The position numbers were made by a program, and so were the translations under genes. Below are positions 32,532-39,324 of a stretch of DNA of 64,000 nucleotides, in pieces. The notes below the pieces were generated by a model that made no database searches, was not told the DNA's origin, and saw only the letters and a list, made by a program, of their open reading frames with translations. This stretch comes from Eledone cirrhosa (Eukaryota), in contig OZ024741.1 of the NCBI GenBank assembly GCA_964016885.1, forward strand, positions 378,200,001 through 378,264,000, written 5' to 3'. Numbering within the stretch: position 1 is the first letter of the stretch; each line of letters begins with the position of its first letter.

Positions 32532-33025
32532 AGGAGCTGATTATACAGAGCGATTGTTGGTCAGGCAGAAATTAAAAATTAGAATTGGAGCTCTGAAATA
32601 GCAATATATATATGGATGTATATATAATTAAGCATAAAGTGTATTGCAAAATACATTATATATACATCCATATATATATATTGCTATTTCAGAGCTCCAA
32701 TTCTAATTTTTCATTTCTGCCTGACCAAACAATTGCTCTGTATAATCAGCTCCTGATTATTTACTAGAATTCTATAAGAATATAACATCAGTAATCTCAG
32801 TAGACAGGAGGGGTAGTTAGCCTTGATAAGCTTCAACACAAGCGAAACAAGGCCCTTGTCGGCTTATCTCCCCTGTTTGCTGAGATTAAAGTAATTGAAT
32901 TTGTCAGTACTCTAAAACAATAGCATACGGTCTTCAAAATGCTTTTAATTAAGCAGAAAGTGTATTGCAAAATACATTATATATACATCCATATATATAT
33001 TGCTATTTCAGAGCTCCAATTCTAA
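32532..33025 (+). mobile_element. retrozyme-like element, family A (about 321 nt monomer, partial tandem plus inverted arm)
   Basis: 32626-32707 repeats at 32947-33025. 32532-32627 is the inverse of about 32656-32754. Ends in (TA)n. Confidence 0.88.
32819..32864 (+). ncRNA. intact hammerhead (U3-A8), family A
   Basis: agcc-TTGATAA-gctt caacac aagc-GAAAC aag gcc ctt GTC-ggct. Stem I extends as ctcagtagacagg/cctgtttgctgag. Cleavage after 32860. Confidence 0.92.
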
Positions 33026-33761
33026 TATATATATACATATATATATATATATATATATATATATATATATATATATATATATATATATATATATATATAT
33101 AGAGAGAGAGAGAGAGAGAGAGAGAGAGAGGTATACAGATAGGTAGATAGATATACATAAATATATGTGTGTGTACACACACACATATATATATATATAT
33201 ATATATATATATATATATATATATATATATATATATATTGATGCATATACAAACATACTCACAGATGTATAGGCATGCATATCATGTGTTCGTAATGTTT
33301 ATTTATACATTCATACGCATCTATAACCTGTATTATGTGACGCCTGTTTCTTTATATTCCGTATTGCAAAGAAGTGATATTTGAAGTTATTTCCTTTCAA
33401 ATAACATTTCTAAGATAGGTTTAACATGTTTACATATATTTATATAACATAACCATATATTTTAAATGTATTCCATAGTATTTCTTTCATTTAAACAAAT
33501 ATGTAATTAGGTATTATTAAAGATATATAAATATGAAAGCACTGTTACAGCTCTATTAGGACATGCGGTTTGGTATCAATTGGTATTTGAAAGAAGTACA
33601 AACGTAAACCAGACATATATACATGGATTCATGCGCATATATTATTATGTGCCTGTATATATATGTATGTATGTGTGTGTATGAATGCACACACACACAC
33701 ACACACACACACACATATACATATATATATATATATATATATATATATATATATATATATA

Positions 33762-33922
33762 TAACGAAGGAGGTGTGGTAAGGAACCAGATGGACGATAA
33801 CGCACCAGAGTACTCAATATTTAGTGTAGTAGAGTGGGTAGTAGGAAATAGTTAGACCCTGACGGCAGAACTCAAGTCGTTTCGACGGCTATTTCTGCCG
33901 TCGGGATCTAACTTTTTCCTAT
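33762..33922 (-). mobile_element. Naiad pLTR tail fragment with fold-back
   Basis: Matches 30078-30210. Same terminus as the other copies. Confidence 0.8.
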
Positions 33923-34079
33923 ATATATACATATATAATGTCAAATGTTAAAATGATGCGATACCACGTTTTGTTATACTGGAGATATAATTGTCGGTCC
34001 TCCGGCTAACGAAGCATACGTAGCTTCTATGGTACCATTGTTTTAATTTGAGATAATAATTATGTTTAAATTCGCCCAT

Positions 34080-37000
34080 TGTGTTGTGCTATAAATTAGA
34101 TATATTTACCTACTCATCTCTCCAACCTCATCTTCACTAAAACAATATACACCAGTCACATTAAGTTGCTGTCTCTACCACGACCACATTGGGCATCAAG
34201 TTTGACCCCAGCTCTTATTCTGCTCCCACGACTGTGCCCATCCTTACCCGCTCCTCTCGACAGCTCATGCGGGCAACATTCGATCAACTCTCGCCCAAAT
34301 CAGTTCTCTCTACCGAGATCTTCTCAAGGCCTACCTCCATCTCTCCTCCACTTGCCACTCTTTCGTCGGGCAATCGCTTATCCAATTCATCCTCTACCTG
34401 GATCGCTTCCTTTTCAATTTCCTCACTACCATCAAAAAACACAAACTCGACTCTCTCCGCTCTCCGCCTGCCGTCACCACCCATAATCTTATCACTTCCA
34501 ACCCTATCCCCTCTATCCCGCCACCTACTATCGCCTTTCTTCTTCCCACCACTGAATCTGCACAAGTTTTGCCCAACCACCTTATTCCCCCGCCTCCCTC
34601 ACGTCCCTGCACAGTAGTCACCATACCCCAGAACCTACCACTCCCCGAAGCTGAGTGCTCCCTCCTCACCCGTGGTTTGCGACGTGTCCCGCACACGTGC
34701 CGATATTGAAAGTTTCTTCCGTTGATCAAAGCTGAAAGTTTTTTTTCACGATACGCCATCATCGACACAGACGGATGACTTCACTCCTCTCAGTCACCGG
34801 AAATCACATTGGACGCCAATCTCTGGCCAGTTCAGCACCCTCAACTCATTTTTCGATACTTGCCAGCGTACTGTGAATCGGTTCCGTTTCCACCAGCATT
34901 CTCGTCGTTCTAAAATCACGCGGACTGAGCTCTCCGTTATTCGCAACCTTCGGCGTCGTGATGACATTGTCATCAAACCCGCTGACAAACGTGATGCAGT
35001 GTGGTTTGAAGCGCTGACCTCTATAGGGCTGAGGCTCTCCGCCAGCTTCACAATACCCTTTATTACCGCCCTTTATCCCCCGACCCCATCCTGGCTACCA
35101 ATAATTCATGTCCTCCACCATCCAGGAGCTCATCTCCTCTTCTCTCCTACCCCTACAACCACCAAACGTATTGTACGCACCCCTCGCACACCCACCATCT
35201 ACTTCCTCCCCAAAATACACAAACAAAATAGTCCCGGCCGTCCTATTGTTTCTGCGTGCAACTGCCCCACCGAGATAATTTCTGAACATTCAGAGACCAT
35301 CCTCGCCCCGTTGGTCGGCAATCTCCCCTCCCACATCCATGATACACATCATTCACGTAGACTTTTCAACTAATACTCCTTCCCTCCTGGTCCCTCTCAC
35401 ATCCTATTTATCCTGGACATCACGTCTCTCTATACCGTCATCCATCATGATGACGGACTCCACGGTCTCCAACACTTTTTTATAATTACCCCTTACCCCA
35501 TCACTACCACTCTTCTCCGTCAAGCTGAGCTTATTCTCACCCTCAATGGCTTTTCTTTTTCGGATGAATCCTATCGGCAGGTCTCTGGGCTAGCGATGGG
35601 AACCAGAATGGATCCAAACTATGCCAAATTGTTTGTTGGCTACGTCGAAGCTCAGATCTTCTCCCAGTACACTGGACAGAATCCTGAGCTAGATCCTGCT
35701 CTCACTTTCACGGCCTCCGTCTCCGATTCTTCTATTGCTTTTCTATATATCTGTCTATCTATTAATCACTCACCACACCCTCTCTACTTCCAACTTCATT
35801 AAACCAACAGACTCCTAATCTTACGTCGAATTCACCTCCTCGCATCAAACCCACACCAAACACTCCATACCATATTGCCAATTGTTCCGTCTTCGCCTGC
35901 TCTGTAGCAGCCAGGACGACGATTTCGAAACCCATTCCTTTCGCATGGCCTCCTGCTTTATCCAGCGTCAATAACCCCCAGGCTGCTCTCACTCGTGCCC
36001 TTGAAACAGACCGCACCACAACCCTCTCACCTCACCCCCGCCCTCCCAACACCCGTGTTCCTTTCCCTCTCACCTACCACCCCACCACCTACCACTCCGG
36101 TGACAAATGCTCCGTTCCTTCCGCATCCTCTCTTCTAACCTCCTCACTTCTCGCTTTATTCCAAACACACATATTACTGCTTTTAAACGCGCCAGCAGCC
36201 TCCGCGACCTCCTGGTTCGCAGTTCCTTCTCGTTCTCTCCCACGACTCGGCCCGTCTCTCTTCCTTGTTCCCGTTCCCGCTGCAACACATGTCCCTTCAT
36301 TTCCACCCTCACCAATCTTACAAACTCTAACGGGTCTTTCCGTACGCACCACCTTTTCACCTACAAATCCACCTACGTTGTCTATGCCTTTCGGTGTTCT
36401 ATTTTCGGGTCCTTATATATCGGACAAACGGGATGCCGTATGGCGGAGCCTTTTGGGGAGCCTTTGAGGGACATACGGCTCGGTTAAGATACTCCTGTCG
36501 CCCATCATTTCTCTTCTCCTGGTCATTCTTCCCTATATGTTTCAGTCCTTGGTGTCCTTTTACATCATGGATCACATGCCTCGGACACAAAAACTGAACA
36601 AATTCTGATTCACCGCCTTGGGTCCTATTCCCCTCTTGGACTCAACTCACCTCCCCAATTTCTCTAATACCGTTATCACACCCCGAAATTCCAATCGCTT
36701 TCCCCTGATCAGTAATATCTTCTCTTACAAATAATACAAGCCGACTATATATGCTCACTCCGCTCGGTATACACACATACACACCCTTATATTAATATAC
36801 TTTGGCTCATAACGTCGTTCTACATTCACACACACTATTTATCTCACATATATACACATTTCTTCTTAGCTTCGTACGGACGTATAACAACAACACATAC
36901 ACACAAGCTTACACACGTGCACATGTATAGCTCTTTTTACAAAACGTTTTTTTTTACATTTCAGGTAGACACGCTCCATCATCCACTTTTCAAAAAAATA

Positions 37001-38002: not shown

Positions 38003-38106
38003 AATAACAATATATATATATATATGTATATATATATATATATATATATATATATATATATATATATATATATATATATATATATATATATATATATATA
38101 TATATA

Positions 38107-38471
38107 TAAAAGAGATAAAATCGAAAATGTAACTGGAGTGTTTTTTTTTTAAATATATATATTTATTTGGTTCCTTTACCGGTTTCGCAGTTCTTCTGCT
38201 TTTCAAAAGGTGAGTTGAGATGGAGTGTCTGTGGTTTTTCTCACATCATATGTGAGAAAAACCACAGACCCTCCATCTCAACTCACCTTTTGAAAAGCAG
38301 AAGAACTGCGAAACCGGTAAAGGACTAAATAAATATATATATTTAAAAAAAAAAAAAAAAAAAATAAGACTCCAGTTGCATTTTCGATTTCATCTCTTTT
38401 TCTTTATACTTTCACTCGTGTAGGACACCTCGGTTATTTTTCATTTTGTAAAAAAAACCTCACTTTCTAAT
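38107..38471. mobile_element. palindromic solo-pLTR fragment of the 15.5-24.5 kb Neptune family, with HHRs at 38173-38210 (-) and 38286-38323 (+)
   Basis: Matches 24290-24500. Centre cacat-cat-atgtg at about 38249. (TA)n on both flanks. Confidence 0.92.
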
Positions 38472-38593
38472 ATATATATATATATATATATATATATATA
38501 TATATATATATATATATATATATATATATATATATATAAATGAATATTTATATATATATATATATCTACATATATATGTGTATGTGTGTGTGT

Positions 38594-39324
38594 AAATTAG
38601 AATTGGTGCTCTGAATTAGCGAACATTATGTGTGTTGGATTCTTATAGTAACAATCAGGAACTGATTTTACAGAACGGTCGCCAGCCCACCAGAAATAAA
38701 AAAACTAGAATTGGTGCTCTGAAATACCGATATATATATATGAATGTATATATAGTGTAATTTGCAATACAGTGTTTGCTTAATTAAAAGCATTTTGAAG
38801 ACCATACGCTATTGTTTTAAAGTGTCGCTTACTTCAATTTTCGGCAGACAGAGGGAGATAAGTTGACAGCGCTGTTTCGTACTATTTGGTACTTATCAAA
38901 ACTCACTACTCTCCCCGTTTGCTAAAAGTTATGTGTGTTGGATTCTTATATTCCAGTAACATTCAGGAACTGATTTTACAGAGCGGTCACCAGTCCAGCA
39001 GAAATTGAAAATTAGAATTGGTCCTTTGAAATAGCGATATATTTATGAATGTATCTTTTCGGCAGACGGGGAGAGTAGTGAGTTTTGATAAGTACCAAAT
39101 AGTACGAAATAGTGCTGCCAAATTATCTCCCCCTGTCTGCCGAAAATTTAAGTAAGCGACACTGTCGCTACTTTAAAACAATACCGTATGGTCTTCGAAA
39201 TGCTTTCAATTAAGCATACAGTGTTTTGCAAAATACACTATATATACATTCATATATATATCGGTATTTCAGAGCACCAATTCTAATTTTCAATTTCTGC
39301 AGGGCCGGCGACCGCTCTGTAAAA
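38594..39324. mobile_element. retrozyme-like element, family A' (about 303 nt tandem period on minus strand, inverted arm 39055-39324)
   Basis: ttatgtgtgttggattcttata at about 38626 and 38929. Shares aaaacaata.c.tatggtcttc.aaatgcttt.aattaagca and atttcagagc.ccaattctaat with family A. Confidence 0.88.
38861..38903 (-). ncRNA. intact hammerhead (U3-A8), family A' (decayed mirror 39081-39123)
   Basis: agtt-TTGATAA-gtac caaata gtac-GAAAC agcgct GTC-aact, enclosed by the long stem ttttcggcagac../..gtctgccgaaaa. Confidence 0.9.

Follow-up and report, generated by a model that had tools for sequence, protein, structure and literature searches.

Positions 32532 to 39324 of the window, a 64,000-nt stretch of Eledone cirrhosa DNA (assembly GCA_964016885.1, contig OZ024741.1, positions 378,200,001 to 378,264,000, forward strand), contain two dispersed head-to-head insertions, A and A', of a ~320-nt non-coding hammerhead repeat family, which was likely written into (TA)n tracts by a trans-acting Penelope-like reverse transcriptase (RT)-endonuclease from an RNA that was longer than one unit and probably circular. 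A first-pass annotation of the same letters had described the span as tandem monomers of 303-321 nt with intact hammerheads and as the best candidate for an active self-cleaving circular RNA. Its monomer length was borne out by measurement (321 nt in A, 303-308 nt in A'), as was its lack of coding capacity (in unit A no ATG frame exceeds 49 aa), and the 316-322-nt unit agrees in size with the metazoan non-long terminal repeat (non-LTR) retrozymes to which it had been compared. The tandem array dissolved into two separate insertions, A (32532-33026) and A' (38591-39324), which are 5.5 kb apart and are each built of inverted arms, with a Penelope fragment and other repeats lying between them. 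The annotation also overlooked the U3:A8 core, which departs from CUGANGA, the head-to-head structure and the Penelope footprint.

Each insertion consists of two back-to-back inverted arms of 0.3-1.5 units. In A, a 97-nt inverted left arm on the minus strand (32532-32628, unit positions u31-u130) is joined to a 402-nt right arm on the plus strand (32625-33026, 1.25 units of 321 nt), which ends at the fixed site u83 and is followed at the right end of the insertion by a (TA)n-rich target tract (33027-33240, no strand). A' has a 464-nt left arm on the minus strand (38591-39054, ~1.5 units with a period of 303-308 nt), which likewise ends at u83, and a 273-nt right arm on the plus strand (39052-39324). 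The interval between them (33241-38590, no strand) is unrelated filler made up of microsatellites, a Neptune-like Penelope fragment and other hammerhead repeat families. Two hammerheads on one strand occur in neither A nor A'; each carries one ribozyme per strand, and therefore neither insertion is able to release a monomer. Both copies in the window are most likely inactive products of Penelope-type insertion and not sources of circles, and the locus itself is an ordinary pair of copies, probably inactive.

Hammerhead A (32796-32885, plus strand) is a type I hammerhead whose inner motif, at 32823-32860, comprises the U3:A8 core TTGATAA (32823-32829), GAAAC (GAAA at 32844-32847) and GTC, with the predicted cut after C32860. 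Its helices are those given in the first-pass annotation: stem I agcc/ggct, stem II gctt/aagc with a 6-nt loop, stem III caag/cttg and the outer stem ctcagtagac/gtttgctgag. This hammerhead passes the intactness test, its region folds more stably than shuffles (z = -6.0), and no U3 hammerhead with a stem III of at least 3 bp arose in 20 block-shuffles of the window. Loop 2 ends in a C (32839) that is private to this copy; 53/53 dispersed relatives and 19/20 aligned subfamily members have adenine there. The minus-strand hammerhead of A' (38899 to 38865, predicted cut after 38865) has the same core and the claimed stems I (agtt/aact), II (gtac/gtac) and III (cag/ctg), all intact, with an outer stem that is partly mismatched. 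The annotation had called this ribozyme intact throughout, which is correct for stems I-III and the core; the perfect outer stem ttcggcagac/gtctgccgaa had been taken from the separate plus-strand copy of A' (39058-39144, core at 39085). That copy is itself damaged and fails the intactness test, with GAAAT in the core, GCC replacing GTC and a broken stem I, so the word intact does not apply to it.

The core of the window copies is the non-canonical U3:A8 form. The pattern TTGANAAG..CGAAA..GTC has 4,969 matches in the genome against 401 for its reversed control, and the C3:G8 version has 720 against 84; these counts do not cover every hammerhead, since both patterns demand GUC at the site and a stem II that is short, and the U3:A8 pattern additionally picks up a few other families. 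Subfamily A accounts for 246 exact matches. Outside the ribozyme, all eight fetched loci of the C3:G8 sister subfamily match the A unit, with each matched piece at 75-95%. The catalytic pair 3:8 covaries within this one family: in an alignment of 20 members of different subfamilies it is UA in 16 rows and CG in four, with G10.1-C11.1 and A15.1-U16.1 invariant. Across the same rows 97% of cells are paired (100% in stems I and II and 97.5% in stem III, with changes on both sides), 11 of the 26 pairs have changed on both sides, and the covariation score was reached by 0/500 shuffles, a count that is not a probability given that the rows are related. This covariation of stems and core extends across subfamilies with a similarity of only about 75-85%, and it implies that the ribozyme is under selection in each round.

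The features expected of a type I hammerhead core, namely a Watson-Crick 3:8 pair, G10.1-C11.1, GAAA and NUH, are all present, and the ribozyme is intact in 39/44 dispersed A copies and 17/35 A' copies. In most subfamilies stem III and its loop together form a perfect or near-perfect palindrome, which resembles dimer-type hammerheads. The family-majority ribozyme would probably cleave in vitro. Rfam gave no hit at gathering score; at a relaxed E-value it returned mostly hairpin-driven microRNA (miRNA) models and one weak match, to Hammerhead_HH9 on a short stretch (19 bits against a threshold of 52, E = 0.01). A C3:G8 member scored 14 bits against Hammerhead_1, where the threshold is 34. Low scores for U3:A8 and C3:G8 members alike indicate that the Rfam models are a poor match to the family whichever core pair it has. 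In loop 2 there is a likeness to the HH9 consensus, and the flanking bulge bases are invariant; window copy A is without the conserved last A of the loop. That adenine would have a role in the tertiary contact between loops 1 and 2. Of this contact, the accessible text of PMC6155905 mentions a conserved reverse Hoogsteen pair and nothing further; here and below, statements on published work refer to the parts of each source that were available. With a unit of 316-322 nt, about 35% GC (measured on a sister-subfamily unit) and no coding content, with this ribozyme, and with true multimers elsewhere in the genome (hexamers and a ~73-kb array), the family fits a metazoan non-LTR retrozyme.

The evidence for the mode of insertion comes from a survey in which 157 loci were fetched from the 3.0-Gb host genome, itself rich in (TA)n; after removal of 19 duplicates and two loci of another family, 136 loci with 137 insertions remained. 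Two-stranded insertions made up 91 of the 137, of which 89 were head-to-head and two tail-to-tail. When ends were read in the ribozyme sense, 182 of 227 3' ends fell at u53-58 or u82-87, two sites 26 nt apart, and 151 of these 182 fixed ends ran into (TA)n, compared with 6% for random window positions. In insertions with both ends fixed, the two ends used one site each in 47 of 52 cases (p = 1.3e-9). The inner (5') ends (n = 219) were spread round the unit, 119 of 219 arms were longer than one unit, and at least two ribozymes lay on one strand in 16/137 insertions. These insertions carry the Penelope 'tail' footprint: an inverted 5'-truncated arm, partial tandems, two fixed 3' ends and a microsatellite target.

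This footprint matches published Penelope insertions. They are described as partial tandems with an inverted truncated arm, a tail and a microsatellite target (PMC8557442, PMC3846280), and purified Poseidon protein cuts both strands of AT-rich DNA and starts at two internal RNA sites, which yields the 'tail' (PMC11167929). The family shares with these systems its partial tandems, the inverted 5'-truncated arm, the optional tail at one end, the AT-rich or microsatellite target and the two internal start sites (PMC8557442, PMC11167929, PMC3846280). It differs from Penelope elements in that the passenger encodes no protein and that its tail is 26 nt, compared with the 30-40 described, and it differs from Poseidon in vitro, where no strand difference was reported, in the use of different start sites by the two arms. 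We regard Penelope mobilization, through nicking of both strands, two internal starts 26 nt apart, random stops and 5'-5' joining, as highly probable. In the proposed sequence of events a Penelope enzyme would nick both strands of a (TA)n target, priming would take place at u57 on one strand and at u83 on the other, the longer-than-unit template would be copied for a variable distance with each complementary DNA (cDNA) stopping at random, and the two cDNAs would then be joined 5' to 5'.

The nature of the template was approached through a ~73-kb satellite of subfamily A (G000:C8:32194239-32267134, L200-L208), in which 225 units were mapped, with runs of a 12-unit higher-order repeat. Neighboring units of this array differ at 863/3,227 comparisons over 15 polymorphic sites. 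Comparisons at satellite-polymorphic sites gave 0/198 differences between tandem copies of the same dispersed arm and 2/491 between opposite arms of dispersed insertions. The dispersed arms carry one haplotype and therefore derive from one uniform template longer than the unit, either a circle or an uncut transcript of a uniform array, of which none was seen. The array on C8 was rejected as a read-through template, for it is mixed and only 2/225 of its units have the dispersed allele string. Of its scored hammerheads 92/99 are intact, it ends at u83 plus (TA)n, and its units most like the dispersed type are the terminal ones on both sides. A second U3:A8 satellite, on C2, belongs to the same superfamily and shares about 90% identity with A across the 30 kb examined. 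Among long dispersed arms, an arm with seven copies has a single variable site, and in another, with eight copies, 3/14 variable sites are common to non-adjacent units. Dispersed copies of subfamily A show no RNA-editing scars, with A>G at 12 and T>C at 12 and differences that are strand-symmetric. Two single arms elsewhere (L011:1281-1368 and L058:866-956) join consecutive units of different subfamilies, which suggests template switching between retrozyme RNAs.

Each of the two insertions lies directly against a Hydra-like Penelope element. PLE1 (30070-32531, minus strand) is a 5'-truncated Hydra-like Penelope that retains the RT end, the GIY-YIG region, the 3' untranslated region (3' UTR) and a pseudo-long terminal repeat (pLTR) ending in (TA)n; within the pLTR lies a type I hammerhead (30176-30259, minus strand) whose core is U3:A8 and whose stem II is long and branched. 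PLE1 has 968 homologues of similar length, and its own ends also fall at two fixed sites, which are separated by 86 nt and run into (TA)n. In translation it shows DKT, the RW motif (RWR replacing RWK), a CxCx5C linker, CxxC and CxH, and with these motifs, its hammerhead and (TA)n it resembles the Hydra clade as described in section 11 of PMC8557442, from which its hammerhead stands apart by the U3:A8 core and the long branched stem II. By these motifs PLE1 may be placed in the Hydra clade. PLE2 is a second Hydra-like fragment (39331-41067; 39331-39570 on the minus strand, 39575 onwards on the plus strand) that stands tail-to-tail with the right arm of A', and its right end is presumed to lie at a (TA)n tract near 41067. 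The third Hydra-like family (L214-L243) is young and 52% identical to PLE1, with many open 713-aa frames and no stop inside the match in 57/76 scored copies; its upstream repeat possibly contains a hammerhead-like motif that is altered at position 4. No intact copy was seen among the PLE1 loci examined, and an 829-aa frame of PLE1 was rejected as a full frame on the ground that its start is translated (TA)n. Pfam left PLE1 and the window's Hydra-like frames unrecognized; for a homologue it returned a weak GIY-YIG match.

The left arm of A meets PLE1 inside the RT YRDDG region (32526-32537, minus strand) over a 6-nt shared stretch, GCTCCT, a joint that is absent from 19 other PLE1 loci. In best-hit samples, insertion and neighboring element show matching divergence from their family majority: 0.8-0.9% for A copies and 1.0% for PLE1, and in the other pair 5.3-5.7% for the window's A' arms and 7.1% for its PLE2 piece. 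We did not accept the joints in the window as proof of co-insertion; the tail-to-tail arrangement of A' and PLE2 fits a deletion, and both joints probably reflect later deletions between neighbors with a common target. For A and PLE1 the deletion is favored because the composite has the long site at both ends, a pairing found in just 2/52 A-family insertions; a template switch at this joint is possible, but we hold it with some doubt. In the only joint found elsewhere (L010), the arm is young and the element that it meets is decayed. Across the survey, Hydra-type matches were found in 13/136 loci, compared with one for the Neptune-like and three for the long interspersed nuclear element (LINE) queries, although those query sets were small. 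The 56 loci examined in three Hydra-like families contain no A-like pLTR, and therefore the choice of partner rests on footprint and age, not on homology. A mobilizing enzyme of the Hydra clade is what we would tentatively favor. A more specific scenario, in which a pair of Hydra-clade enzymes, acting on the two strands of a (TA)n break, copies one circular U3:A8 RNA from two fixed sites, one for each strand, and the joint at 32532 is a fossil of a template switch from the enzyme's own RNA to that of the retrozyme, would be a long shot; if true, it would name the mobilizer of an animal retrozyme in spite of no common sequence and would give direct genomic evidence of rolling-circle reverse transcription.

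Several results weigh against Penelope mobilization from a circular RNA. The fetched loci were best hits and lean to young, similar copies. The minimum-energy fold of A is non-catalytic (-44.2 versus -41.4 kcal/mol), with the U3 strand paired to stem III and the catalytic fold 2.8 kcal/mol higher, and in a 2026 preprint 8/9 retrozyme dimers did not cleave in vitro (10.64898/2026.07.22.740005). No A-like pLTR was present on an autonomous element in 19 PLE1 loci and seven extended PLE1/PLE2 loci, nor in 30 loci of the third family except as one neighboring insertion. Direct joints to Penelope coding sequence occur in 3/137 insertions, two of them in this window. The 5' ends show no clear clustering at the cut site: 12/219 lie in u233-241, u236-238 contains none, and higher counts occur in other 9-nt windows. 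In one hexamer 3/14 variable sites are common to non-adjacent units, which is unexpected from a single circle, and hammerhead cleavage is dispensable for insertion by the Poseidon protein (PMC11167929). The Poseidon hammerhead needs the protein for cleavage (PMC11167929).

The absence of a 5' pile-up, the variants common to non-adjacent units and the dispensability of cleavage in vitro all speak for an alternative in which Penelope copies uncut read-through RNA from a small uniform tandem source, with the hammerhead as a passenger and no circle; a uniform source array of this kind may exist. We consider this alternative possible yet doubtful. The large A array that is known is mixed, with the dispersed allele string in so few units, and cannot have served as the read-through template, and the covariation of stems and core among divergent subfamilies implies that the ribozyme is selected in each round. 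On balance we lean towards a circle as the template.

Alternatively, the repeats would be solo, 5'-truncated pLTRs of a yet-unfound autonomous Penelope element; the head-to-head solo PLE1 pLTRs in the window (29800-30040 and 33763-33910) have the same appearance, and a preprint (10.64898/2026.07.22.740005) reports that vertebrate retrozymes are related to pLTRs. The over-unit arms (119/219, and the hexamers), however, continue into further unit copies and not into a 3' UTR or an endonuclease frame, and the 56 Penelope loci examined yielded no A-like pLTR, which makes this explanation unlikely. That the locus itself is an active tandem retrozyme making monomer circles, as the first-pass annotation proposed, appears very improbable: hammerhead A does pass the intactness test and its region folds far better than shuffles, but there is one ribozyme per strand per insertion, one of the three ribozymes (the plus copy in A') is damaged, the inverted arms would give long double-stranded RNA, and A has its private loop-2 change, so that the claim of a best candidate finds no support here. 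Spread as a DNA satellite or foldback element of the miniature inverted-repeat transposable element (MITE) type, with the arms as terminal inverted repeats, is the least credible reading, for despite the large satellites on C8 and C2 and the higher-order periodicity on C8, inner ends fall all round the unit, outer ends correspond to the 3' side of the RNA and are fixed at two sites, the two ends differ in most cases, and the array on C8 likewise terminates at u83 followed by (TA)n.

Penelope-type mobilization of retrozymes has been proposed before. Penelope elements have been named strong candidate mobilizers of metazoan retrozymes (PMC7229834), and Li, Clavereau and Pollet (2026 preprint, 10.64898/2026.07.22.740005) argued that vertebrate retrozymes derive from pLTRs. 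With the metazoan non-LTR retrozymes of these two sources the family has in common its ~320-nt, low-GC, non-coding unit, its type I hammerhead, its thousands of copies, which occur singly, as dimers and in long arrays, and a Penelope as proposed mobilizer. It differs from them in the U3:A8 core with a C3:G8 sister and in having no homologous pLTR that we found, and, unlike retrozymes as described in these sources, it is mostly head-to-head, two-armed and set in (TA)n with two fixed 3' ends. U3:A8 hammerheads are natural and active in vitro (Perreault et al. 2011, PMC3088659) and occur in the minimal pLTR hammerheads of Schistosoma Cercyon (Cervera and de la Pena 2014, PMC4209133). The compensatory change of the core pair is shared with these motifs, whereas the full type I fold, the 3-4-bp stem III and the HH9-like loop 2 set the family apart from minimal U3:A8 motifs, and the presence of both core states in one alignable family sets it apart from known U3:A8 hammerheads.

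Our literature search found no description of a U3:A8 retrozyme or of a cephalopod retrozyme, although the supplements of the cited papers, which lay outside the search, may list such; within the same limits, a strict one-site-per-arm footprint is undescribed for retrozymes. What appears to be new here is the U3:A8 core with its C3:G8 sister, the one-site-per-arm footprint and the absence of a homologous pLTR. In the available sources, the mobilizer of animal retrozymes and copying from a circle have so far been proposed from co-occurrence and pLTR likeness. This family supplies predicted start sites (u57 and u83), a target, a uniform template and, in the same genome, open-frame candidate enzymes, and therefore the published in vitro Penelope assay could test mobilization directly. 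It also offers a natural C3:G8/U3:A8 ribozyme pair in one scaffold, and it shows that a search confined to CUGANGA would overlook several thousand of the hammerheads that this genome contains.

Further Penelope-related and hammerhead repeats were seen in the window. Solo pLTRs of the PLE1 family lie at 13575 (plus strand), 29800-30040 and 33763-33910, the last two being head-to-head pairs in (TA)n with one short and one long end each. Decayed Penelope fragments at 21272-22830 and 34060-37400 have a CX4CxxC linker and are Neptune-like by motif. A second family with U3:A8, whose minimal hammerhead has the core TTGAAAA and a palindromic stem III of 2 bp, is found at 15652 (minus strand), 19292 (plus), 24328 (plus) and 38206 (minus)/38290 (plus), likewise in head-to-head pairs. 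A third repeat family forms a near-perfect 490-nt palindrome at 37520-38010 with a C3:G8 minimal hammerhead at 37685 (minus) and 37821 (plus), and its inverted arms score as long miRNA-like hairpins. Two more inverted pairs, at 49064-49127 (plus)/48849-48786 (minus) and at 10505 (plus)/10366 (minus), have CTGATGA..GAAA motifs with weak stems and are doubtful.

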